50,403 nucleotides of DNA, taken from the sequence record NC_047998.1; one strand, 5' to 3'. Position numbers and translations under genes: made by a program. How positions within the stretch are numbered: the first letter of the stretch is position 1; the number at the start of each line of letters is the position of its first letter. Of the stretch, positions 7,828-35,913 are shown piece by piece. The DNA comes from Shigella phage Sfin-1. The notes below the pieces were generated by a model. It was not told the origin of the DNA, searched no databases, and worked only from the letters and a program-made list of their open reading frames with translations.

Positions 7828-8171
7828 TATTTACCACTCCCGAATGAAAAGTTGACATTTAAAACCTGATTGCAAACTGATTCCATGTATCGCAACTGAT
7901 ATTGAGCAACCTTTGAAGGACTTAATTCATCAGAAAATAAGTCATCAACATTGATTTCTTTTTTATGCTTGCGCTTCCATGCCTTGATGATATTTGGCAG
8001 GATGCGCTCGCTCTTCCAGGCTGCAAACTCAGCTTGATTCGTTGAAACAGGAGTAAGTTGCTTTTCGATCTGGTTGAGCAACTCGGCAGTTGCTCCTTTT
8101 ACGTGCAATTGGTCGCCAATCGCATCAAGGATTTCACGAGCTTGCTTCTCTGATAGGTTAATCGTAATCAT
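7827..8171 (-). CDS. Hypothetical protein
   Basis: 114-aa ORF, start overlaps upstream stop. Confidence 0.45.
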   Translation of the reverse strand: MITINLSEKQAREILDAIGDQLHVKGATAELLNQIEKQLTPVSTNQAEFAAWKSERILPNIIKAWKRKHKKEINVDDLFSDELSPSKVAQYQLRYMESVCNQVLNVNFSFGSGK

Positions 8172-8377
8172 GCCTCTTCTCCTTCATCTTCGATCGGTGT
8201 AAAAAACTGAGTGTTCACTGCCGGGTTGTAATAAACTCCGTCATCATAGTCGCTTTCTTTCACTTCAATGAAAACGTCGCAACCGTCATGCATGAAATCA
8301 CCGTTATCAGTATGAACGAGTTCGAATACTTCAGAAGTTTTAGTGCAAGTGAAAAACTTATCAGTTGATACCATCAT
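8168..8377 (-). CDS. Hypothetical acidic protein
   Basis: 69-aa ORF, first gene downstream of the promoter cassette at 8410..8453. Confidence 0.45.
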   Translation of the reverse strand: MMVSTDKFFTCTKTSEVFELVHTDNGDFMHDGCDVFIEVKESDYDDGVYYNPAVNTQFFTPIEDEGEEA

Positions 8378-8409
8378 TTCGATTTTCTCTCTTCGTTGTC
8401 GATGAGGTA

Positions 8410-8453
8410 ACTATATCAAATCACCCCACCGACGTTTTAGCAATTCGTGCTAT
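8410..8453 (-). promoter_or_regulatory. Early promoter cassette (TAGCACGAATTGCTAAAAC dyad, 22-bp spacer, TGnTATAGT)
   Basis: Dyad TAGCA-N5-TGCTA; 22 bp to extended -10 TATAGT; the TAG of the dyad is the stop codon of the upstream kinase gene. Confidence 0.55.
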
Positions 8454-9022
8454 TTGTTGATGAACGTAGCGGCTATGTGCTGAGCGGTAATTTCTGGATG
8501 ACCTTCGACAGAGAAGAAATCACACTCCTGATAACCATTAACCCCGATCATATCTTCCAGGTAAATATAATCACGGCTGTCGTTGTCAAAGTTGCAGCCT
8601 TTGCGGTGTATTCGACATAGCTTGACCTGGATATCACCCTCAATCATCTGCAATACCTCATCTTTGAATCCACCATCAGTAAATACTGACAGAGAATATG
8701 ACTCTTTGACCTTGCTTTCCGCTCGCATACCGAAGAATCGATTTCCGAACTGTGGCTTGATGACTTCCTCGCTAATCCAGATCATAAACTGGCGCGGGCT
8801 TTTACCGTTCAGGATTGACGCTGGCTCTTCTTTGTAACGACGGTCCTCATACAAGAACATGAAATACTCGTAGTTAGTTTCACCCAGGATTGCCCGAGCA
8901 ATCTCAAACATTGGTGCTTTAAAGCTGCGCAAAGCTACATGATCGTAAGTGTCAGCCAGGATGCATCCGATAGTGTCCTTGCCTGCTCCAGGAGCGCCGT
9001 TTAAAATGATAGCTGTTTTCAT
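8450..9022 (-). CDS. P-loop nucleotide/nucleoside-monophosphate kinase (T4 Dnk-like)
   Basis: Walker A GAPGAGKDT and an LNGKSP motif that I recall from T4 gp1 dNMP kinase; AGGGAG RBS. Confidence 0.55.
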   Translation of the reverse strand: MKTAIILNGAPGAGKDTIGCILADTYDHVALRSFKAPMFEIARAILGETNYEYFMFLYEDRRYKEEPASILNGKSPRQFMIWISEEVIKPQFGNRFFGMRAESKVKESYSLSVFTDGGFKDEVLQMIEGDIQVKLCRIHRKGCNFDNDSRDYIYLEDMIGVNGYQECDFFSVEGHPEITAQHIAATFINK

Positions 9023-9023
9023 A

Positions 9024-9134
9024 TCAGTATCTCCCTAAAAATAATTTTGCCATATCGATAATAGTGTGATTGATGATTAGCAGGATGATAACCGTCAATA
9101 CCGGATGTGCTGCAATAAATTCGTATAGGTTCAT
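9024..9134 (-). CDS. Small single-pass membrane peptide (36 aa), translationally coupled to both neighbours
   Basis: ATGA overlap with the phosphatase stop; stop 1 nt before the kinase ATG; hydrophobic core VLTVIILLII. Confidence 0.35.
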   Translation of the reverse strand: MNLYEFIAAHPVLTVIILLIINHTIIDMAKLFLGRY

Positions 9135-9607
9135 TTCTCTACCCCGTGCGATTTTAAATGATCGTGAACGTTATCGCCATAGTCAACTACAGCATATGTT
9201 GTTATTCCAAGCGACCGGAATAATGGAATAATTTGCGGTGAGTCATCCCAAGCTGCCAGGATGTTTTCAATACCGATCGCTCGCACCGCTTCTTCTTTCA
9301 TCACCGTGTCTTTCCTGTTGTCTGTGTGCGGTCGCATGACTAAGTAATCATATCTCGCACCGTGATGCTTAAGCCATAACTCAGATGCGTAACGAACCTC
9401 ATCACTTCGCCCGGTTAAAACTATTACGTGATACCCGGCAGCAAACATAGAGTTCATAACCTCAATCGTGCTCTGGATTGGGTTATCAAATATTGCCGCT
9501 CGGTTAAACTCAGACCAGCTTTCAGTTAAGTGCAAATCCTTTGTCGGCAACAGGTGAAGGCGCTTTGATCCATCACTAAGCGTTCCGTCAAAGTCAAAGA
9601 TTGCCAC
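9131..9607 (-). CDS. HAD-superfamily phosphatase (putative nucleotidase or polynucleotide 3'-phosphatase)
   Basis: N-terminal DFDGTL (HAD motif I, DxDGT); GTG start. Confidence 0.6.
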   Translation of the reverse strand: MAIFDFDGTLSDGSKRLHLLPTKDLHLTESWSEFNRAAIFDNPIQSTIEVMNSMFAAGYHVIVLTGRSDEVRYASELWLKHHGARYDYLVMRPHTDNRKDTVMKEEAVRAIGIENILAAWDDSPQIIPLFRSLGITTYAVVDYGDNVHDHLKSHGVEK

Positions 9608-9703
9608 GCGTCGCGTGCCGAGAAACAGGTTGATAGTTTGACCCCAATGGTAATTTTATCCATGATTTATTCCTATGATTGGTTGCTTAACTCAACGAAG
9701 GGC

Positions 9704-9747
9704 ATTCTATCAAATGCCCTTGAGCAAGTTTTAGCAATTAGTGCTAT
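9704..9747 (-). promoter_or_regulatory. Early promoter cassette (dyad plus 22 bp plus TAGAAT)
   Basis: TAGCACTAATTGCTAAAAC followed after 22 bp by TGaTAGAAT; a GGGCATT/AATGCCC hairpin overlaps the -10. Confidence 0.5.
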
Positions 9748-10193
9748 TACCAGCAACTGATCTCGTATTCAGCCCAGCTATCAAACTCTTCCTGACTGAA
9801 TGAGCCGCCGTAATTGTCATGAATATCATCGATCAAAAAGTAGCACGACTCACCGTTACGATAGAAGTATGAATCAGCAACGTTACGCGCCCATGTTCCG
9901 GCGTCCTTCTTGCTCATCTTCCAGTATTTAATTGCAATCTTCTTGAATGCGCGAACTACGCGCTTGCGGATCTTGATATGCTTGTACCCCGCGTTGCAGC
10001 CGTAAGCCATATACTCATTGTTCCCGAGATTCTGCATGATGTACGGATTAACTTCTTTTGAAGCAATCATTAGATCGCCATCGCCTCGATGCGCATCATA
10101 AATGCTTGCTGTCATGTAGTGGCCTTTGAACATTCCAATGCCGTGCAGGGTGTGTTCATTGTTAGGTGTATCAATGCAAATCAAATGTTTCAT
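9747..10193 (-). CDS. Hypothetical protein (148 aa)
   Basis: Start moved to the internal ATG at 10193, which has a GAGGG RBS. Confidence 0.45.
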   Translation of the reverse strand: MKHLICIDTPNNEHTLHGIGMFKGHYMTASIYDAHRGDGDLMIASKEVNPYIMQNLGNNEYMAYGCNAGYKHIKIRKRVVRAFKKIAIKYWKMSKKDAGTWARNVADSYFYRNGESCYFLIDDIHDNYGGSFSQEEFDSWAEYEISCW

Positions 10194-10223
10194 GAGTGTT
10201 CCCTCGTTCGTTGGTGTAGGGGA

Positions 10224-10267
10224 ATCATATCGCATTCCCATTGATAGGTTTTAGCAATTCGTGCTAT
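10224..10267 (-). promoter_or_regulatory. Early promoter cassette (dyad plus 22 bp plus TATGAT)
   Basis: TAGCACGAATTGCTAAAAC, 22-bp spacer, TATGAT; GGGAAT/ATTCCC hairpin. Confidence 0.5.
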
Positions 10268-10469
10268 TCGTTTTAATAGTGATGCAAAAATAATTTTTTA
10301 AGCACGTCACCACGCGCGCTGAATCTACTTGTGGAAGCCTTAAAATTTCATGGACCAGTTGCACTGCCGACACGTCAAAATTGTAGTAGTGTGCGATTCT
10401 GGAGGTATTTGGGAGCATCCCTTCCACTGCGTCACGCGCTGCATCTTCCGCTGTCATGATAGTAGCCAT
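10251..10469 (-). CDS. Hypothetical protein (72 aa)
   Basis: AAGGG RBS; stop lies within the downstream promoter dyad. Confidence 0.35.
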   Translation of the reverse strand: MATIMTAEDAARDAVEGMLPNTSRIAHYYNFDVSAVQLVHEILRLPQVDSARVVTCLKNYFCITIKTNSTNC

Positions 10470-10576
10470 AAAACACCCTTAAGAGATAGAGTCAGAAACA
10501 GGAGGCAGAATAACAACTCATGAAATGATGGAGGTTCGTTTTTCCAGTTCTTAAAGTCAGGCATAAAGCTATTCAT
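10454..10576 (-). CDS. Possible small hydrophobic peptide (40 aa)
   Basis: GAGGTG RBS and ATG just downstream of a terminator-like hairpin; overlaps the next gene start out of frame. Confidence 0.2.
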   Translation of the reverse strand: MNSFMPDFKNWKNEPPSFHELLFCLLFLTLSLKGVLWLLS

Positions 10577-10584
10577 ATTCACCT

Positions 10585-10618
10585 CATAAAAATAGGGAAC
10601 CGCTCAGGAACGATTCCC
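10585..10618 (-). terminator. Putative terminator hairpin after the membrane-anchored tandem-domain gene
   Basis: GGGAA...TTCCC stem followed by a U-rich tract on the minus strand. Confidence 0.3.
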
Positions 10619-10626
10619 ACTTTAAG

Positions 10627-11283
10627 TTAAACTACGAAAAACAGCACGATAAGAGAAATAAGAAGCACGGTAGCCATAGCCAGGTTCGCCAGATTATCAA
10701 TGTCCTTGTTGGTCAGCTTAGGCTTGACTTTACCATCAACTTCGATTGGCTTAACGCTGTGAATCTTACCCTGTTCGATGCGGAAACCGCCCTTGATTCG
10801 ACTGGTATTAAATTTCTGCTTCTTCTTGCCGAACGTTGCAAACTTAGTGCCGCCACTATTCCAGCGAAGACCTTCGCCATTATGCGTTACGGTAGCAATG
10901 CGGTGACGGCCCGTGTCGTCAGTAAGCGCTACAGTGTGCTTTGCGTGCTCAGTAGGAACGTCGTAGATTTTGCCAACAGTAAATTTCTTGGTGTTATCAC
11001 TGATACATTCGAATTTCATAAATTTTACCTCTTTATTATGCAGTTGGTTGATTGCTTCGATTACGTCGTTAAATTTAACACCATCCACGATTCGATGGAA
11101 GATATATTTTGAACTACCGCCATACGGCAGGAAAATTTCTTGGTATTCGTGACGACGGATGATGTTCACATTGCTACCGTGCTCATCCACGACAACGAAG
11201 CTGTCGTTATTGACGCGAGCGCCTTCGTAGATTTTTCCCCACTTAAATCCCGTTCCGTCACTTGATACGCATTCAAATTTCAT
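10627..11283 (-). CDS. Membrane-anchored protein with two tandem copies of a small conserved domain and a C-terminal transmembrane helix
   Basis: Internal repeat MKFECVSSDGTGFKWGKIYEG / MKFECISDNTKKFTVGKIYDV; C-terminal hydrophobic tail LANLAMATVLLISLIVLFFVV. Confidence 0.55.
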   Translation of the reverse strand: MKFECVSSDGTGFKWGKIYEGARVNNDSFVVVDEHGSNVNIIRRHEYQEIFLPYGGSSKYIFHRIVDGVKFNDVIEAINQLHNKEVKFMKFECISDNTKKFTVGKIYDVPTEHAKHTVALTDDTGRHRIATVTHNGEGLRWNSGGTKFATFGKKKQKFNTSRIKGGFRIEQGKIHSVKPIEVDGKVKPKLTNKDIDNLANLAMATVLLISLIVLFFVV

Positions 11284-11567
11284 GGTCTAACCTTCCTGTA
11301 AGGTTTGATTGATAACATCACGTATTGCGTGAAGTCGCATTCCTGATCGTCATACCCGCGATTGATGTATGGCGTCACGTCTGTAACATCGGACACCCTG
11401 GCGTGAACTTCCCACCCGGTAAACTCGTCACGATCGAACTCGCATAGCTCCAGGATATCGCCAGGCTGGAAGTTGCGGTCATTGATGCGGAACTCTGCCG
11501 TTTTTGTTCCGTTCATTACTCCAATGAAATGTACCGGGGCGATTTTTAATTTATGAGTTTTGCTCAT
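11280..11567 (-). CDS. ASCH/PUA-like (DUF3850-type) small protein
   Basis: The ~95-aa sequence KLKIAPVHF...G.KTAEFRINDRNFQPGDILEL fits my recollection of the DUF3850/ASCH fold signature. Confidence 0.4.
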   Translation of the reverse strand: MSKTHKLKIAPVHFIGVMNGTKTAEFRINDRNFQPGDILELCEFDRDEFTGWEVHARVSDVTDVTPYINRGYDDQECDFTQYVMLSIKPYRKVRP

Positions 11568-11757
11568 CTTCCTTTACCTCGAATGTTACGTTCCAAAATT
11601 TATTGCCGCAAGAATGATAGGTTACGTCATGCGGCGTTAGTTCGTGCAATGCATGACCGATGATTTCCATGCGATCGTTCGGTGTCAGACCTCGAAGTGA
11701 TTCACGAAGGCGTGAAGCCTTGTCGTAAATCTGCCACTGCGTGAGTCGTGTAGCCAT
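11551..11757 (-). CDS. Hypothetical protein (68 aa)
   Basis: Start moved to the internal ATG at 11757, which has an AAGGA RBS. Confidence 0.35.
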   Translation of the reverse strand: MATRLTQWQIYDKASRLRESLRGLTPNDRMEIIGHALHELTPHDVTYHSCGNKFWNVTFEVKEDEQNS

Positions 11758-11885
11758 AGCTGATTCCTTATTTGCAAAACGGGCAGGTTGATTTATTTCC
11801 GCTGCCACCATGATTAGGGCAGCACACTTTCTCAATTGGTGTCATAGCTGATTCCTCTGATTGGTTGCCGTGCTTCAATAAGGCC

Positions 11886-11929
11886 ACTATATCAAATGGC
11901 CTTGCGGAAGGTTTAGCAATTCGTGCTAT
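11886..11929 (-). promoter_or_regulatory. Early promoter cassette (dyad plus 22 bp plus TGaTATAGT)
   Basis: TAGCACGAATTGCTAAACC, 22-bp spacer, extended -10; GGCCA/TGGCC hairpin. Confidence 0.55.
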
Positions 11930-12075
11930 CGTTTAACACACATTGTTTTTACTTCGTATCCGAACGGCTTGTTTTCTGCAATTACTTCCCGAGCCTTGTT
12001 ACATGCTTGCTGACTTTCCATGTATACGTGATCCGGCCCGGTACTCATCAAGATAATCAAGACCCATGCAGCCAT
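11926..12075 (-). CDS. Small membrane peptide (49 aa), below the ORF-track cutoff
   Basis: TAATG overlap with the upstream stop; GAGGTG RBS; hydrophobic N-terminus; its stop is the TAG of the promoter dyad. Confidence 0.3.
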   Translation of the reverse strand: MAAWVLIILMSTGPDHVYMESQQACNKAREVIAENKPFGYEVKTMCVKR

Positions 12076-12566
12076 TATTTCACCTCATAGCGTACAAGCG
12101 TTCCGCGCTTAATGCTGATTTCACCTGATACCGTCTTGTTCTTGAAGCCGCCGTGATGCAATAGAAGCGTGATGATATCGTCGTGCACCTCAATAGTTTT
12201 TGGTGTCGCGGTAATCTCAACCCAAGAATCGCTGCTAATCTGGACACCTTTTAGCGTTGCGCTAAGTGGCATATTCTCGATCTGAGTGCACTGTAGCGAT
12301 GGCTTGATTTCTGGCTTTGATTCATGAAAGATGGCCCGACCAACTTTCCAACCAGGCCCGGCACTCTCAACATAATACGGAAGAGACGGGATGTTATCAG
12401 GATTGTGATTGTTATGAAGCTCAATGAGATTACCAACAATCGACGGGTGACACTCATTGAATGACGAATCAGTTGCACGATCTTTGCTGTGGCAGGTTAT
12501 TTTACCGCAGCTAATAGTGTTAAAAACTACAGGGAATTTAATCTCGTTTAATTTCAACATAATCAT
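12075..12566 (-). CDS. Hypothetical protein (163 aa)
   Basis: Long ORF with no recognisable motif. Confidence 0.45.
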   Translation of the reverse strand: MIMLKLNEIKFPVVFNTISCGKITCHSKDRATDSSFNECHPSIVGNLIELHNNHNPDNIPSLPYYVESAGPGWKVGRAIFHESKPEIKPSLQCTQIENMPLSATLKGVQISSDSWVEITATPKTIEVHDDIITLLLHHGGFKNKTVSGEISIKRGTLVRYEVK

Positions 12567-12590
12567 TTCCTCTTGGTGGTCGATGTGGGG

Positions 12591-12634
12591 ATTGTACCAG
12601 TCAGGACGAATCCCCTTTTAACAATTCGTGCTTA
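12591..12634 (-). promoter_or_regulatory. Early promoter cassette (variant dyad TAAGCACGAATTGTTAAAAG plus 22 bp plus TACAAT)
   Basis: Same architecture; GGGGATT/AATCCCC hairpin; dyad contains the TAA stop of the upstream gene. Confidence 0.5.
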
Positions 12635-13120
12635 GTAGACTAGCTCACACTCAATATCGAACGGCTCGGAGTCTCGATGGAAGAAGCAAAGCGGCTCTTT
12701 GTTCATCCCGCCTACAAAACCAACGGCGCGAAGCTGCTCATCATTAATGTAAGCAAGGCTTGCGGTAATTTCCTCAAAGTCCACAATAACTGGGAACGTG
12801 CGATTCTCATAACCAGGGCGCATCGGGTAGCCGCCATTGTTGAGAAGTCGAACCTTGCGAGGCTTGACGATCGCTTGAACTTCCCATTCAAAGAAGAACA
12901 TCGTTCCGTCCTTCTCGTTGAAGTCAGCCGGGCCAAATACCGGACTAACCGATAGGCCGTAATCGAGATCGTACACACCAGCTTTAACCAGGTCATCTAC
13001 TTTGACGCGGTAGCCGCCAATGCTATCATTGCACTTCACGGCGTCAACGATAATAGGGTCAGATTCCAGGTCGCGAGTAAAGCCCTTGTAACCGCCAGTG
13101 CAAAGTAATTTAATTTTCAT
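12632..13120 (-). CDS. Hypothetical protein (~162 aa)
   Basis: Start moved to the ATG at 13120, which has a GAGGA RBS. Confidence 0.45.
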   Translation of the reverse strand: MKIKLLCTGGYKGFTRDLESDPIIVDAVKCNDSIGGYRVKVDDLVKAGVYDLDYGLSVSPVFGPADFNEKDGTMFFFEWEVQAIVKPRKVRLLNNGGYPMRPGYENRTFPVIVDFEEITASLAYINDEQLRAVGFVGGMNKEPLCFFHRDSEPFDIECELVY

Positions 13121-13131
13121 GATTTCAATCC

Positions 13132-13338
13132 TCATTGTTCACGTTTAAATTTAGCCACCACATCGCCATTGCGCTTAGTTGCTGTTAGCGCTTTCTTGTC
13201 AAAGTAGAACCACGTATACACTCCATGAACCACATCAATAACCTCTCCGCTTTTGTTTGTAAAGCTATCGATTTGAGCGACATATTCGAAGCCTTCTGAG
13301 TAGTTAATTTGATTTGATTCAATGCACCGCAGTTTCAT
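13132..13338 (-). CDS. Hypothetical small protein (68 aa), possible member of the paralogous domain family
   Basis: Starts MKLRCIES; ATG at 13338 with GAGGA RBS. Confidence 0.45.
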   Translation of the reverse strand: MKLRCIESNQINYSEGFEYVAQIDSFTNKSGEVIDVVHGVYTWFYFDKKALTATKRNGDVVAKFKREQ

Positions 13339-13368
13339 GATAAATCCTCGTTCGTTATCGATGGGGTT

Positions 13369-13412
13369 ACTATATCGCAACCCCGGAATTGAGTTTTAAC
13401 AAAAAGTGCTAT
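13369..13412 (-). promoter_or_regulatory. Early promoter cassette (dyad variant TAGCACTTTTTGTTAAAAC plus 22 bp plus cgaTATAGT)
   Basis: Same spacing; GGGGTT/AACCCC hairpin. Confidence 0.5.
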
Positions 13413-13600
13413 TCTTTAATTTCGAAGCAATCAGTATCTTCGTCGAATACCCAGGGGTCGCCATTATCATCAAGCAATGAGACGTTACCGAAGCTGGTTA
13501 GCGACGCACTATAAGGCTTGTCAACGGTAAAGCACTCTTTCACTTCCTGGTCCTCACTACCTTTGAATACTGCAATCATTTGGTGCATAAAATCAGCCAT
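13409..13600 (-). CDS. Hypothetical small acidic protein (63 aa)
   Basis: Acidic ORF immediately after a promoter cassette. Confidence 0.4.
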   Translation of the reverse strand: MADFMHQMIAVFKGSEDQEVKECFTVDKPYSASLTSFGNVSLLDDNGDPWVFDEDTDCFEIKE

Positions 13601-13609
13601 TGTTAAATC

Positions 13610-13786
13610 CTATTCGCAAGTGATCTCATTTGATGTGATTGGTAGCAAAACATTGCCAACCATCACGAAAGTAGTAACCTGGTTCCCGGTTTCATGGCAT
13701 CGCTCTTTGACCTCGCCACAGCCGGACACTACCAGGATAGCCAGGGCGACCGCCGCCATCATGCAAATCAGAATGCGCATCATTCG
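13610..13786 (-). CDS. Putative small lipoprotein (58 aa)
   Basis: MMRILICMMAAVALAILVVSGC: signal peptide with a lipobox-like VSGC; ATGA-coupled to the upstream small membrane ORF. Confidence 0.35.
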   Translation of the reverse strand, partial: RMMRILICMMAAVALAILVVSGCGEVKERCHETGNQVTTFVMVGNVLLPITSNEITCE

Positions 13787-13890
13787 AACGCCCCCGCACA
13801 CAGGAGAAGCATTACCACGATGCCGACCATAACGTGACCCATGCAGAAGAACCAGACGGCAGACCATAGCGCTACTGTATTAAAGTTCAT
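13780..13890 (-). CDS. Small hydrophobic membrane peptide (36 aa)
   Basis: ATGA overlap with the upstream gene stop; almost entirely hydrophobic (VALWSAVWFFCMGHVMVGIVVMLLLCAGAF). Confidence 0.3.
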   Translation of the reverse strand: MNFNTVALWSAVWFFCMGHVMVGIVVMLLLCAGAFE

Positions 13891-14114
13891 TTTAGTACCT
13901 CGATCTTGTTGTCGCCGATTGAGTTTTCTACTACTGATTGCGGATCGTCTCCAGGTACGCGCATGTAAAAATTACTCACCGCCGTGAAGTTCCATTGACC
14001 GCGCCACTTGAAATATAATCCGTGCTTTGCGCCTTTCGCGCAGTGAGTAGATTTAGCCGGGATCATGTGCCCGTTGACGCGGATTAGTTTGGTTAGGTTG
14101 CTGTAACGTGGCAT
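13887..14114 (-). CDS. Hypothetical protein (75 aa)
   Basis: ORF in the coupled array. Confidence 0.45.
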   Translation of the reverse strand: MPRYSNLTKLIRVNGHMIPAKSTHCAKGAKHGLYFKWRGQWNFTAVSNFYMRVPGDDPQSVVENSIGDNKIEVLK

Positions 14115-14120
14115 AATTAT

Positions 14121-14351
14121 TTATTCCTCAATTAAAGTACTGATATCATCACGACCTTGAAACTCGCCATTCCATACCAAGAAGTTTGCAAGGTTTTCGC
14201 AGCGCACCCACTTTCCGTTATTTTCCATGTATGTTTTGTACCCACCCGGTACGGCCCTGACAGCAAATCGCTTGTTGTCGCGAGTGATGAAAATAGCAAA
14301 GCGGTTGTGGCTGGTTGAGTCGATGGCTTGTTGGTTCTTGATGATTGACAT
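14121..14351 (-). CDS. Hypothetical protein (76 aa)
   Basis: ORF directly downstream of a promoter cassette. Confidence 0.45.
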   Translation of the reverse strand: MSIIKNQQAIDSTSHNRFAIFITRDNKRFAVRAVPGGYKTYMENNGKWVRCENLANFLVWNGEFQGRDDISTLIEE

Positions 14352-14389
14352 GGCGAATCCTCTGATTGGTATCTCGTTTTGATGGGGTA

Positions 14390-14433
14390 ACTATAGCAAG
14401 ATACCCCGATCCGGTTTTAACAATTCGTGCTAT
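14390..14433 (-). promoter_or_regulatory. Early promoter cassette (TAGCACGAATTGTTAAAAC plus 22 bp plus TGcTATAGT)
   Basis: Same architecture; GGGGTA/TACCCC hairpin. Confidence 0.55.
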
Positions 14434-14900
14434 TTGGTGAGATACTTTACCTCACTGCCGGAAATCATATTCCAACCATCATCAAAGAATACGCTATAGC
14501 ATGTTGCCGAGCGATGGCGAATCTTGGATACAGTGCGCCACACCTTACGGCCCGAGTAACCAGTCAGCACACGCATCCCTGGCGATAGCTCACCCGACTT
14601 TCTCACCTTAATGCTCACGTCAGAGTCAAGATCGAACGACCCCAGGCGAACCGGATTGACCATCTCAAACATTCTCATAACTTCGTGATCTTCTTTCCCC
14701 TCGCAGCCACCGCTAGCCTTAACCGCTTCAACAAAATCACTCAGCTTGTCAGTGAGTAAATCGCCATCGTAAGCCTCAATTGAGATGACCGTGTAATGAG
14801 TGTACGTGTGCCAGTGCGATCCGGTTTTGTGCTCGAACGCGAAGAATGACATTTCGCCATCAATCTCATCTTTAGCCAGGAATACGGTAATGGTTGTCAT
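14430..14900 (-). CDS. Hypothetical protein (156 aa)
   Basis: Long ORF with no recognisable motif. Confidence 0.45.
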   Translation of the reverse strand: MTTITVFLAKDEIDGEMSFFAFEHKTGSHWHTYTHYTVISIEAYDGDLLTDKLSDFVEAVKASGGCEGKEDHEVMRMFEMVNPVRLGSFDLDSDVSIKVRKSGELSPGMRVLTGYSGRKVWRTVSKIRHRSATCYSVFFDDGWNMISGSEVKYLTK

Positions 14901-14902
14901 GA

Positions 14903-15097
14903 TTATGCCTCAGCAAAGTAAGTGTTAAAGCCCTTGAGTTTGTAGTCGCTACCTACGCGCACCACGTTCCAGGTAAGGCCAGAGTGATATGCAACCATAT
15001 CTTCAAGGTCGATCGTGATTTCGGTTCCTTTCTTGAACAGACCCTTTTCATGAGTTGAGTCGCGCTGAACAACAACCACATCAATTTGCGTTTCCAT
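14903..15097 (-). CDS. Hypothetical small protein (64 aa)
   Basis: Start moved to the ATG at 15097, which has a GAGGA RBS. Confidence 0.4.
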   Translation of the reverse strand: METQIDVVVVQRDSTHEKGLFKKGTEITIDLEDMVAYHSGLTWNVVRVGSDYKLKGFNTYFAEA

Positions 15098-15129
15098 CTT
15101 CGTTTCCTCTGTATCGTGTCGATGAAAAG

Positions 15130-15173
15130 ATAATACCCGATCCGCTCGACCGGGCTTTAACAAAAAGTGCTAT
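15130..15173 (-). promoter_or_regulatory. Early promoter cassette (TAGCACTTTTTGTTAAAGC plus 22 bp plus TATTAT)
   Basis: Same architecture; CCCGGTCGAGCGGATCGGG hairpin. Confidence 0.5.
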
Positions 15174-15187
15174 TTCACCTATCAGAG

Positions 15188-15703
15188 TTACAGTCCACAC
15201 TTTTCAATATGTGCTTTCATCTGGCGCACGATCTCATTCACATCGCGAACCATTAACTCGCTATCGGATAGCTTGCTAACATCAACATCAAACGAATCCA
15301 GGCAGTCGGCCAGGCTAACTTTTTTCCGGCTACGGCGTTTCTTCACCGGAACCTCTTCGTCTGTAACGATAACGGTTATCATCGTGATTGCCGCGTCATT
15401 CCGGCCTACCTTCACCTTTGCCACCTTGCCGTACTTGCAAAAGTGGCGGGTAATGATCGGAGTAATGAAAGCAGACTTGAATCGCCTCTCTACCTCAGCT
15501 TGGTTCTGGTTCACCCATCCGGTAGCGCCTCGCTCCACCTCATCATCTGAAATATCCTGATCTCGGAAGTAAAATTTTACCGCCTCTCTCGCCATATCAT
15601 CAGCCACGAAAGAGAACTCGGTCATGCCTTTGTCGCGGTACATTGCATCGCAGGTTAGTCGAATCATGTCGGTGATTTTTAATTCCTGATTGGTATTGCT
15701 CAT
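15188..15703 (-). CDS. Hypothetical protein (171 aa), first gene of the leftward early array
   Basis: GAGGATGG RBS; lies immediately next to the divergent control region. Confidence 0.45.
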   Translation of the reverse strand: MSNTNQELKITDMIRLTCDAMYRDKGMTEFSFVADDMAREAVKFYFRDQDISDDEVERGATGWVNQNQAEVERRFKSAFITPIITRHFCKYGKVAKVKVGRNDAAITMITVIVTDEEVPVKKRRSRKKVSLADCLDSFDVDVSKLSDSELMVRDVNEIVRQMKAHIEKCGL

Positions 15704-16145
15704 AATCCATCCTCATTTGTCTATTGATGTGTAAATGGTGTCATAACATGTCAACAATTGCCATTGTGACAGCGCAATGCAGGGCTGTCAATGCCTGCGA
15801 GCCAATTTTAAGCTGTGTAACATTTGTCTAGCTGTCTAGAGTCCCCATAGAAATATATGACTCTCAAAAAAGTACTGTATATATAAACATGCAGATAGAA
15901 ATATGCCAACAGTACGCTAGACAATGTAAGACGGCTATACACAACTATTACAATATAATTATCTATATATATAAATATAAAAAAAACACTATATATATTA
16001 TATATATACATATATCCATATGTCTATTGTGGGGCGTCACAGTGCGTAATTTTGTCACAAGTGCGATTCTAGACAAATATTACAGTCGTGACAAGTTAAG
16101 GTGTAATCGATAGCACGTTTTGCTAAAAATGGAGATGACCACCAG
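15704..16145. promoter_or_regulatory. Divergent early control region A: TA-rich tract and six TGTCTA half-sites (four direct, two inverted)
   Basis: Non-coding strand-switch region; TGTCTA at 15719, 15825, 15834, 16021 and TAGACA at 15918, 16067; about 60-bp (TA)n-like tract at 15955..16015; degenerate promoter dyad at 16111..16128. Confidence 0.55.
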
Positions 16146-16390
16146 GTGAACCGGGTAACACTAAATCCTCCCTCTCACAATCATTGCATTCCAAGCAACA
16201 ATCACATCAACAGTTGCACACCATGCAACAATCACATTTCATCATTCGAGATCAATTGGGATCGCAATTATTCCAGATATTCCATTGCTGGTGGAATAAT
16301 GAGCAACTATTGGAATAGCATTTTTTGCAACATATCAGCCCTGCCGATAGGGTATGATTCATCTCATCAACCAATCATAGGAATCACGCA

Positions 16391-16603
16391 ATGGAACCAA
16401 AATTTGAATGTGCCGTGCAATGCATTAGCGTTAGCACCGACAGCTTCACGAATCAATCAGTGTATGAGATCTACCTTATTGATGGTGGGTACTTCGCTAC
16501 TGACAATCAGCAAAATCAGATCGGCGTTTTCCGTTCAATGAATGGATGGGATCGCTTCCTTACCAATAACGGGCAGACGGTATTCAAAGAGGTAACGAAA
16601 TGA
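16391..16603 (+). CDS. Hypothetical protein (70 aa)
   Basis: AGGA RBS; ATGA-coupled to the downstream methyltransferase. Confidence 0.4.
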   Translation: MEPKFECAVQCISVSTDSFTNQSVYEIYLIDGGYFATDNQQNQIGVFRSMNGWDRFLTNNGQTVFKEVTK

Positions 16604-22532: not shown

Positions 22533-22558
22533 AAAAGGAGGCTAAGCCTCCTTTTTTC
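22533..22558. terminator. Bidirectional intrinsic terminator between convergent genes
   Basis: AAGGAGGCT-AA-GCCTCCTT hairpin flanked by A- and T-runs. Confidence 0.7.
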
Positions 22559-22946
22559 CGTTCTTACGAAGTGAAAAATAAATCATCAACAGGCCAATAA
22601 AAACGAGAGTCCACCCTACAATTGCATCGTACCAGTTCCCCGGTTTTGTTACCGTGATGCTTTCAGCGTTAACCGTGTTAGCCTGAATGGTTGACACTTC
22701 CACAGACTTCTTGACGGATGAGTCAATCTTGCCAATATTTGAATCACTCACCTTCACTTCTCGCTTATCGTCGGCCTTTGCAGTAACTCCCGCCAGTTGC
22801 TTAGTGTTCTCAGCGCCAACCTGCGCAGTAACATCCGGGGAGTCAGAAAGTAAACCGCTCAGAGCAGATGCCGTCGAGCAACCGGATAGAGAAATAACAC
22901 CAACAGCCACTGCAATCGCAATGCACGTTTTCTTCAGTTTCATCAT
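22542..22946 (-). CDS. Unimolecular spanin (T1 gp11-type)
   Basis: N-terminal lipoprotein signal with lipobox LSGC plus C-terminal transmembrane helix; last gene of the lysis cassette. Confidence 0.6.
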
Positions 22947-35682: not shown

Positions 35683-35913
35683 ATGAAAAAGTTAATCACC
35701 ATTATCGCTGCGGCATTCATCCTGACTGGTTGTGCTCAGAATCTTAAAAATGGCGACTGCGTTACTTACGCATACGGTTCTTGCATGATGCGATTCGTTG
35801 ATGGTCAAAAGGTTCCTGCTGGCGAAATTGATATGCGATTCAAAGGTCTGTCATCCGACGACGATCAGGGCAACTTTAGCGGCAAGGTGTCAATCAAAAC
35901 TAAAGAGTGGTAA
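35683..35913 (+). CDS. Small lipoprotein, candidate superinfection-exclusion protein (Llp/Cor-like)
   Basis: Signal peptide with lipobox LTGC; 76 aa; adjacent to the tail-tip and receptor-binding region. Confidence 0.5.
   Translation: MKKLITIIAAAFILTGCAQNLKNGDCVTYAYGSCMMRFVDGQKVPAGEIDMRFKGLSSDDDQGNFSGKVSIKTKEW

Follow-up and report, generated by a model that had tools for sequence, protein, structure and literature searches.

Shigella phage Sfin-1 (NC_047998.1; the whole 50,403-nt stretch is the window referred to below) carries every gene from ~6.5 to 16 kb on the minus strand, and between positions 9,024 and 13,890 several very small open reading frames (ORFs) sit among longer genes. On sequence evidence, the window holds the complete genome of a T1-like phage, Tunavirus Sfin1, and its length is about what such genomes have. 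Over the 5-kb interval it matches Sfin-2, Sfin-4 and Sfin-6 (Drexlerviridae, Tunavirus Sfin1) at 100% identity and many T1-like coliphages at 88-97%. The minus-strand small-gene block to which the interval belongs corresponds to the T1 block upstream of the terminase genes. A first-pass annotation had flagged three micro-ORFs (A, B and C) as hidden genes for membrane peptides, the last of them paired with a small lipoprotein. All three are present on the minus strand at the places and lengths that it reported (Table 1). Two further micro-ORFs, D and E, fall within the flagged interval and were absent from its list.

Table 1. Small genes of the interval, followed by neighbouring features (window coordinates)
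Feature	Size	Position	Strand	Remarks
Micro-ORF A	36 aa	9024..9134	-	MNLYEFIAAHPVLTVIILLIINHTIIDMAKLFLGRY; between pnk and the deoxynucleoside monophosphate (dNMP) kinase gene
Micro-ORF B	49 aa	11926..12075	-	T1 ORF69; phrog_5579; TAATG overlap with the stop of a 163-aa ORF
Micro-ORF C	36 aa	13780..13890	-	MNFNTVALWSAVWFFCMGHVMVGIVVMLLLCAGAFE; T1 ORF73 (ST73); phrog_25570; ATGA overlap with the DUF7274 gene stop
Small lipoprotein	57 aa	13610..13783	-	T1 ORF72; phrog_8628; predicted signal peptide and lipobox LVVSG/C
Micro-ORF D	40 aa	10454..10576	-	36-aa core from ATG 10564; T1 ORF67; predicted C-terminal transmembrane segment LLFCLLFLTLSLKGVLWLL
Micro-ORF E	25 aa	11768..11845	-	MTPIEKVCCPNHGGSGNKSTCPFCK; C-x2-H...C-P-x-C motif; not hydrophobic
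DUF7274 gene	75 aa	13887..14114	-	Pfam PF23939, E = 8e-38; stop overlaps the start of C
Polynucleotide kinase/phosphatase gene (pnk)		9131..9607	-	PHROG 415 and Pfam HAD_PNKP; upstream partner of A
AT-rich non-coding region, candidate promoter zone		about 15763..16100	-	best sigma-70-like matches; includes TATATATATAGATAAT

Coding evidence for the small frames

Each flagged frame fills the gap between its neighbours exactly. The starts overlap the upstream stops as had been described (ATGA for A with pnk and for C, TAATG for B), and Shine-Dalgarno-like pairing is recognisable ahead of all three, of which two had been credited with a ribosome-binding site. The pairing free energies are -6.3 (A), -6.9 (B) and -7.2 (C) kcal/mol, and -8.6 kcal/mol for the lipoprotein gene, against a mean of -2.3 and a 5th percentile of -6.6 kcal/mol at random positions. 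The reported ATGA coupling of C to the lipoprotein gene is also present, the TGA stop of C overlapping the lipoprotein ATG (13783..13781). This ATG at 13783 is the true start; at 13786, where the start had been placed, the codon is CGA. The stop of A ends 1 nt before the dNMP kinase ATG and its last codons hold the dNMP kinase Shine-Dalgarno sequence (AGGGAGA), and D overlaps the start of the next gene by 16 nt. Overlapping junctions are routine in this genome type: in T1, 27 of 72 adjacent same-strand gene pairs overlap (37%; 8 ATGA-type, 9 by one base and 10 by more), and ATGA also joins genes of differing annotated function. Starts that overlap the preceding stop are what is usually seen where phage genes are closely packed on polycistronic messages.

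An open frame by itself is weak evidence, since a 36-codon frame is expected to be open by chance with a probability of ~0.12 at this composition. Selection was measured on orthologous stretches from ~13 distinct relatives (loci L003-L020) as Nei-Gojobori ratios of nonsynonymous to synonymous divergence (pN/pS), summed over pairs. Shigella phage vB_SsoS_008 (locus L019) was excluded from these statistics because frameshifts or truncations affect its A, D, B and lipoprotein genes and its C is altered, all within 5 kb; so many lesions point to low sequence quality rather than gene decay. In the claimed frames pN/pS is 0.11 for A, 0.08 for B, 0.11 for C, 0.20 for D and 0.15 for the lipoprotein, with pS of 0.21-0.39 against pN of 0.02-0.04. 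Both shifted sense frames give 1.0-5.7 for the flagged ORFs and at least 1.0 for all five. Variable sites concentrate at codon position 3 (17/25 in A, 26/42 in B, 21/34 in C, 14/22 in D and 36/55 in the lipoprotein gene), with binomial P values of 4e-4, 1.4e-4 and 6e-4 for A, B and C and a span of 1e-6 to 3.5e-3 across the five ORFs.

The frame is kept at full length in most carriers: 12 of 13 for A, 12 of 14 for B, 14 of 15 for C, 15 of 16 for D and 13 of 14 for the lipoprotein. Carriers lacking it are mainly the frameshift-ridden SsoS_008 record, plus one nonsense allele. As a control, every sense-strand ORF of 20-59 aa between 6.5 and 16.5 kb (~30) was scored in the same way; a ratio of ~0.1 was reached only by ORFs that fill gaps, and those overlapping longer genes in another frame had pN/pS of at least 0.7. 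Conservation in related genomes, which the first-pass annotation had proposed as a check, is therefore borne out, with intact frames under purifying selection in ~13 relatives. Low in-frame ratios, position-3 bias, intact frames and controls that carry no such signal together argue that A, B, C, D and the lipoprotein gene are real conserved protein-coding genes, not chance ORFs.

Were the flagged frames hidden, as had been proposed? They do fall below the 60-aa cutoff of the ORF track, but all three are annotated along with the lipoprotein in the Sfin-4 record, B and the lipoprotein in those of Sfin-6 and SA12KD, and C, the lipoprotein and B in the T1 reference record (2004 genome paper, PMID 14972552 as cited there). 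The exact sequences of A and C are present in NCBI and UniRef as hypothetical proteins (for A, QGF19846.1 among others). Full-length PHROG matches were obtained for C (E = 5e-27), the lipoprotein (3e-29) and B (1e-25), all in families of ‘unknown function’; the same search returned no family for A, D or E. Scans of the six small proteins against Pfam, PHROGs, NCBIfam and PADLOC gave no functional family. The KanT1 paper (PMC13164509) puts at about 50% the share of T1 proteins, mostly from small ORFs, whose function is undetermined. The flagged ORFs are thus already on record in GenBank, UniProt and PHROGs, and the finding is an ordinary one that was already known. The only truly hidden ORF of the interval is E; the flagged three are not.

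Predicted products and their relatives

The description of the products as hydrophobic membrane peptides is supported for A and C, which have a single-helix composition, and not for B. Relative to 320 small ORFs from six frames, the grand average of hydropathy (GRAVY) is at the 97.5th percentile for A and the 99.4th for C, and the maximum Kyte-Doolittle 19-residue means are 2.22 for A, 2.46 for C and 2.29 for D, all at the 97th-99th percentile (97.5th for D). The T1 record annotates ORF73 with a ‘single transmembrane domain predicted N-in and C-out’ and ORF67 with a ‘single transmembrane domain’. A, C and D are accordingly predicted to be single-pass peptides of the inner membrane. D, present in 16 loci, is annotated in Sfin-4 and Sfin-6, and a wide search with C found one related representative cluster among 1.84 billion. 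Small single-pass membrane proteins include T4 Imm and HK97 gp15, which act as exclusion factors, and small membrane regulators of E. coli. A, C and D would share with these a length of ~30-50 aa, a single hydrophobic helix, an accessory character and the lack of an enzymatic domain; no homology was detected.

Further evidence that A is translated comes from four genomes with a 78-nt insert upstream of it. There A keeps its frame and has a GTG start preceded by a canonical AAGGAG, which is good independent evidence given the different upstream context. In T1, Eco_BIFF and JMPW2 a 164-aa HNH endonuclease stands in place of A. The slot that separates pnk from the dNMP kinase gene (9022..9134; L004, L010, L012, L013, L016-L019 and L022) is polymorphic between relatives, its alleles comprising A alone, the 78-nt insert (with a basic 26-aa ORF) followed by A, and the HNH homing endonuclease replacing A. 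In SsoS_008 the C-terminal part of A is apparently fused to an HNH remnant, and in L022 the slot holds two unrelated 66-aa ORFs.

B is probably a small soluble alpha/beta mini-protein. Among small ORFs its GRAVY of -0.07 ranks at the 42nd percentile and its highest 19-residue mean, 1.15, at the 69th; hydrophobic residues run for ~10 positions (W4-M10) where a membrane span takes ~19, and no positive n-region precedes them. AlphaFold confidently models a compact strand-strand-helix-strand fold (E4-10, E13-19, H22-35 and E43-48) with a predicted local distance difference test (pLDDT) score of 88.3, and the hydrophobic N-terminus is placed in it as a core beta-strand, which leaves ‘membrane peptide’ unsupported for this product. 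B occurs in 92 phage records, including homologues ~36-48% identical in Tempevirinae and Braunvirinae, and W4, C25 and C46 are invariant. In JMPW1 a premature stop replaces Cys25, and neither Shfl1 nor L012 has the gene. A wide protein search retrieved 8 clusters only, all close phage relatives, and Foldseek against the PDB gave nothing significant (best E = 0.13), resemblances to PII-like proteins and T7 Gp2 being non-significant.

The product of the 57-aa gene has the features of a lipoprotein, as it had been called: a positive n-region, a hydrophobic core and a lipobox (MMRILICMMAAVALAILVVSG directly before the Cys), as judged by the pattern [LVI][ASTVI][GAS]C after an N-terminal signal peptide. 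Among 20 sequences, R3, S20, G21 and C22 are each at least 90% conserved. By the established +2 rule, Gly at +2 predicts sorting to the outer membrane. AlphaFold places a helix at 2-20 and strands at 29-42 and 45-56 (pLDDT 72.8, only moderately confident), so that the mature part, ~35 aa long, would form a beta-hairpin stapled by Cys29 and Cys56 at its two ends. Both cysteines are at least 90% conserved, and the best-conserved stretch, VMVGNVLLPIT, forms the modelled hairpin tip. The lipobox itself varies: DELF2 has C22F, SH6 has G21V, and P0021, a homologue on contig L022, has a transmembrane-like anchor and no lipobox. DELF2 and P0021 both retain Cys29 and Cys56, and P0021 also the hairpin tip. 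A wide search of 5.8 billion proteins retrieved 22 clusters, all close phage relatives. An upstream extension of the frame (an 85-aa ORF, 13610..13867) was ruled out by a pN/pS of 3.1 over the C region.

Of the ~54 GenBank records with C and the lipoprotein gene, nearly all have the two side by side. Two contigs separate them. On metagenomic contig L007, C is intact, with its own TAG at a block-boundary motif, and the lipoprotein module is lost; on L022, P0021 (55% identical) directly follows DUF7274 and no C is found in the locus. The earlier suggestion that the two act as a functional pair is not sustained, since each occurs alone. Taken together, L007, L022, P0021 and DELF2 suggest that the conserved unit is a membrane-tethered periplasmic hairpin, with both the lipid anchor and the partnership with C inconstant.

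The T1 orthologues are 83% (C/ORF73, AAP49927), 89% (lipoprotein/ORF72, AAP49928), 94% (B/ORF69, AAP49931) and 89% (D/ORF67, AAP49933) identical, and gene order and overlapping junctions are alike in the two phages for these four. T1 differs in having no A orthologue and no E. No function is recorded for the T1 orthologues.

E lies within a 78-nt insertion, absent from close relatives, that is bounded by a 13-nt direct repeat, GGAATCAGCTATG (~11855..11843 and 11767..11755). Full-length tblastn matches occur in 136 phage records, most of which annotate nothing at that position; the matches range over several Drexlerviridae lineages or subfamilies and the T4-like Pseudotevenvirus, that is, two phage families. 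The 25 codons and stop are kept in 25 of 25 loci (L025-L048 and L079 among the related loci), in at least 5 different upstream contexts, and nucleotide identity falls from 0.68 to 0.32 just beyond the stop. pS is 0.77, near saturation, against a pN of 0.12; codons 1-16 are constrained by the search pattern used to collect the loci, and over codons 17-25, outside that pattern, the ratio is 0.25 with a non-significant codon-position test (P = 0.19). All 14 distinct variants from the two families share C9, H12, C21 and C24, a full set of four candidate metal ligands.

Exact-sequence look-up of four E variants in a 15-billion-protein collection found none of them, no significant match was returned from PHROG, Pfam, NCBIfam or PDB sequences, and a motif scan of bacterial genomes gave only chance matches inside GC-rich ORFs. 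E resembles minimal zinc-knuckle and zinc-ribbon micro-proteins in its knuckles (C-P-x-H and C-P-[FY]-C) and in the Gly-rich loop between them; it differs in being only 25 aa long and phage-restricted on these searches, and metal binding is predicted from the residue pattern. On balance we slightly favour the view that E represents an unrecognised mobile micro-protein family, a minimal zinc-knuckle effector acting on a conserved host target. The insertion repeat would then comprise the ribosome-binding site and ATG, the family would move between genomes, and its small size would be why gene callers miss it.

Neighbouring features of the block

The AT-rich region upstream of the block is probably its transcription start zone, an early promoter region (15763..16094). 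It holds, on the minus strand, the block's three best sigma-70-like matches, TAGACA-18-TATAAT (11/12), TTGTCA-17-TAGAAT and TTGACA-17-CACAAT, and the region (~15.76-16.09 kb) is kept in relatives with small indels and shows no coding signal. A 26-aa ORF at 15864..15944 was rejected as coding, lying in this AT-rich, indel-bearing region. A scan of 8000..16500 against Rfam matched no RNA family.

At the other end of the block, pnk (9131..9664) has a 1-nt deletion relative to Sfin-4, Sfin-6 and SA12KD, in a T-run at ~9646 (ACCATTTGGGG to ACCATTGGGG). It shifts the frame from codon 7, with the ORF open again from GTG 9607; the deletion may be genuine or an error of sequencing. A 218-aa ORF (10627..11283, minus strand) appears to contain an internal duplication, both halves starting MKFEC[VI]S...GKIY, and its putative C-terminal transmembrane segment, ATVLLISLIVLFFVV, would make it another membrane protein of the block.

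A 19-nt motif, TAGCACGAATTGCTAAAAC, occurs in 11 copies at up to 3 mismatches, against 0.01 expected (minus strand: 8434, 9728, 10248, 11910, 12615, 14414, 25983 and 31057; plus strand: 16111, 17706 and 19056). The copies examined in the small-gene block start at or just past a gene stop codon and are followed by a hairpin. Breakpoints of mosaic similarity and deletions, for example in L007, fall at copies of the motif. The pattern suggests a terminator-associated boundary element that doubles as a recombination site.

Possible roles and rival explanations

With a probability of about 85%, we regard A to D and the lipoprotein gene as ordinary small genes of the Tunavirus accessory block upstream of the terminase genes. 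From their distribution in viable relatives we infer that all are accessory, individually dispensable and lineage-restricted: an HNH endonuclease replaces A in T1, B is broken or absent in JMPW1 and Shfl1, the lipoprotein is lost from L007, and none of the five micro-ORFs A to E is present in L022. Transcription would start in the sigma-70-like cluster at ~15.76-16.09 kb and translation would be coupled to upstream neighbours. A, C and D would insert into the inner membrane, and the 57-aa protein would be exported, lipid-modified at Cys22 and delivered to the outer membrane, displaying its ~35-aa stapled hairpin in the periplasm. B and E would stay cytoplasmic, E as a mini metal-binding peptide. 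By analogy with other small phage membrane proteins, the membrane peptides and the lipoprotein might bind host envelope components while infection proceeds, for take-over or for receptor-independent protection or exclusion, a suggestion that we hold only tentatively. The data do not separate exclusion, take-over or counter-defence for the membrane-directed products, and we would not expect the peptides and lipoprotein to form a dedicated two-part machine. It is a very long shot that the hydrophobic tip of the disulfide-stapled hairpin (FVMVGNVLLPI) allows it to inhibit some envelope machine through beta-strand augmentation.

In two-component spanins (Rz/Rz1), an inner-membrane component and a small outer-membrane lipoprotein are encoded by overlapping or adjacent genes. 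C and the lipoprotein could likewise be an obligate two-component envelope system, a mini spanin or exclusion pair whose stoichiometry is fixed by the ATGA. Nearly every sequenced Tunavirus genome has them side by side with the ATGA junction, both are predicted to be envelope-targeted, and both are confined to the same lineage. However, each can occur without the other, as the L007 and L022 arrangements show, and in this genome type ATGA often joins genes whose annotated functions differ. C lacks a periplasmic domain with which to reach an outer-membrane partner, unlike Rz/Rz1 and the T1 u-spanin gp11, having neither a periplasmic coiled-coil nor a soluble domain. The genome also has its own u-spanin (22542..22946; 89% identical to T1 gp11) in a holin-endolysin-spanin lysis cassette at ~22.5-23.6 kb, and the lipoprotein gene lies ~9 kb from it, outside the cassette as had been stated. 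We therefore consider an obligate pair unlikely. Similar doubt attaches to the idea that A, C and D permeabilise or depolarise the membrane in the manner of type I toxins or holin modulators, for host shut-off or to set lysis timing. In being small, extremely hydrophobic and free of soluble domains they do recall small membrane toxins. Against this stand the empty Pfam, functional PHROG, NCBIfam and PADLOC scans, the distance from the lysis cassette, the absence of the charged C-terminal tail typical of holins, and the dispensability of each peptide in some relatives.

The 57-aa lipoprotein invites comparison with T1 Cor, T5 Llp and Rtp45 of phage Rtp, small lipoproteins described as attaching to their phage’s own receptor from the periplasmic side; the genes for Cor and the Drexlerviridae exclusion lipoproteins lie next to those for tail fibres or receptor binding (PMC13164509, PMC9586334, PMC12685063). 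Like these and the Cor proteins of phi80 and N15, it is small, has a signal peptide and lipobox and is predicted to sit in the outer membrane on the periplasmic side, in a virulent siphophage; on this rival view it would act in superinfection exclusion by blocking the receptor. Its modelled mature part, a single hairpin of ~35 aa, is much smaller, and similarity to the window’s cor-position lipoprotein is confined to the lipobox (hhalign probability 4%). Profile searches of the PDB gave nothing relevant and the best Foldseek PDB hit had E = 2, with the Llp and Rtp45 entries included. The gene lies ~22 kb from the cor position and not beside tail-fibre genes, and the cor position is already filled (35683..35913, plus strand) by a lipoprotein with a signal peptide identical to that of T1 Cor and a diverged mature domain (45% over 53 aa). 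For T1 ORF31 and ORF32, the two genes that precede cor, the window has no equivalent, and this together with the diverged Cor domain suggests that the receptor and exclusion module differs from that of T1. Yet C, the lipoprotein, B and D stay 83-94% identical to T1 despite the differing receptor cassette. As far as the lipoprotein is concerned, these findings also speak indirectly against the exclusion or membrane-remodelling role that the first-pass annotation had suggested. Its own cor-position lipoprotein, the lack of co-variation and the lack of profile, PDB or fold similarity make a receptor-specific blocking role improbable, more so than either the obligate pair or the toxin-like activity; a receptor-independent envelope role is possible. 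Least probable of all is that the frames are chance openings or translational relays in spacer DNA, with selection on the act of translation or on the nucleotides rather than on the peptide. The ~0.12 expectation for a 36-codon frame and the double use of the A 3' end as a Shine-Dalgarno sequence fit this account. It is already largely refuted by the retention of amino acids where synonymous sites diverge, the significant position-3 bias, the lack of signal in overlapping or shifted frames and, for B, protein conservation across three subfamilies (36-48%).

Several points weigh against the picture of an accessory block of small genes with envelope-directed products. No ribosome profiling, proteomics, mutant, essentiality or functional data on Tunavirus small genes were found in the literature, and an envelope-directed function is something we infer and nothing more. 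The pairs summed for pN/pS are phylogenetically non-independent and come from ~13 close relatives. Transmembrane and lipoprotein calls are based on composition, motif and AlphaFold models, the B model was built on a shallow alignment of 9 close sequences, and the hairpin model is of moderate confidence. To judge from C22F and P0021, lipidation is not strictly required. Expression timing is drawn from promoter-like matches alone, and their total count in the block is no higher than in shuffled sequences.

For the flagged ORFs themselves little changes, and they remain part of the large pool of small T1-like phage genes annotated with no function. What is gained is firm comparative coding evidence and a corrected list of products: three predicted membrane peptides, one hairpin lipoprotein and one soluble mini-protein. 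That the peptide and lipoprotein are separable, and Cor-like blocking unlikely, narrows the experiments worth doing in a phage group used in the biocontrol of Shigella and E. coli. E, finally, provides a concrete case of a conserved phage micro-protein missed by standard annotation and by protein databases.

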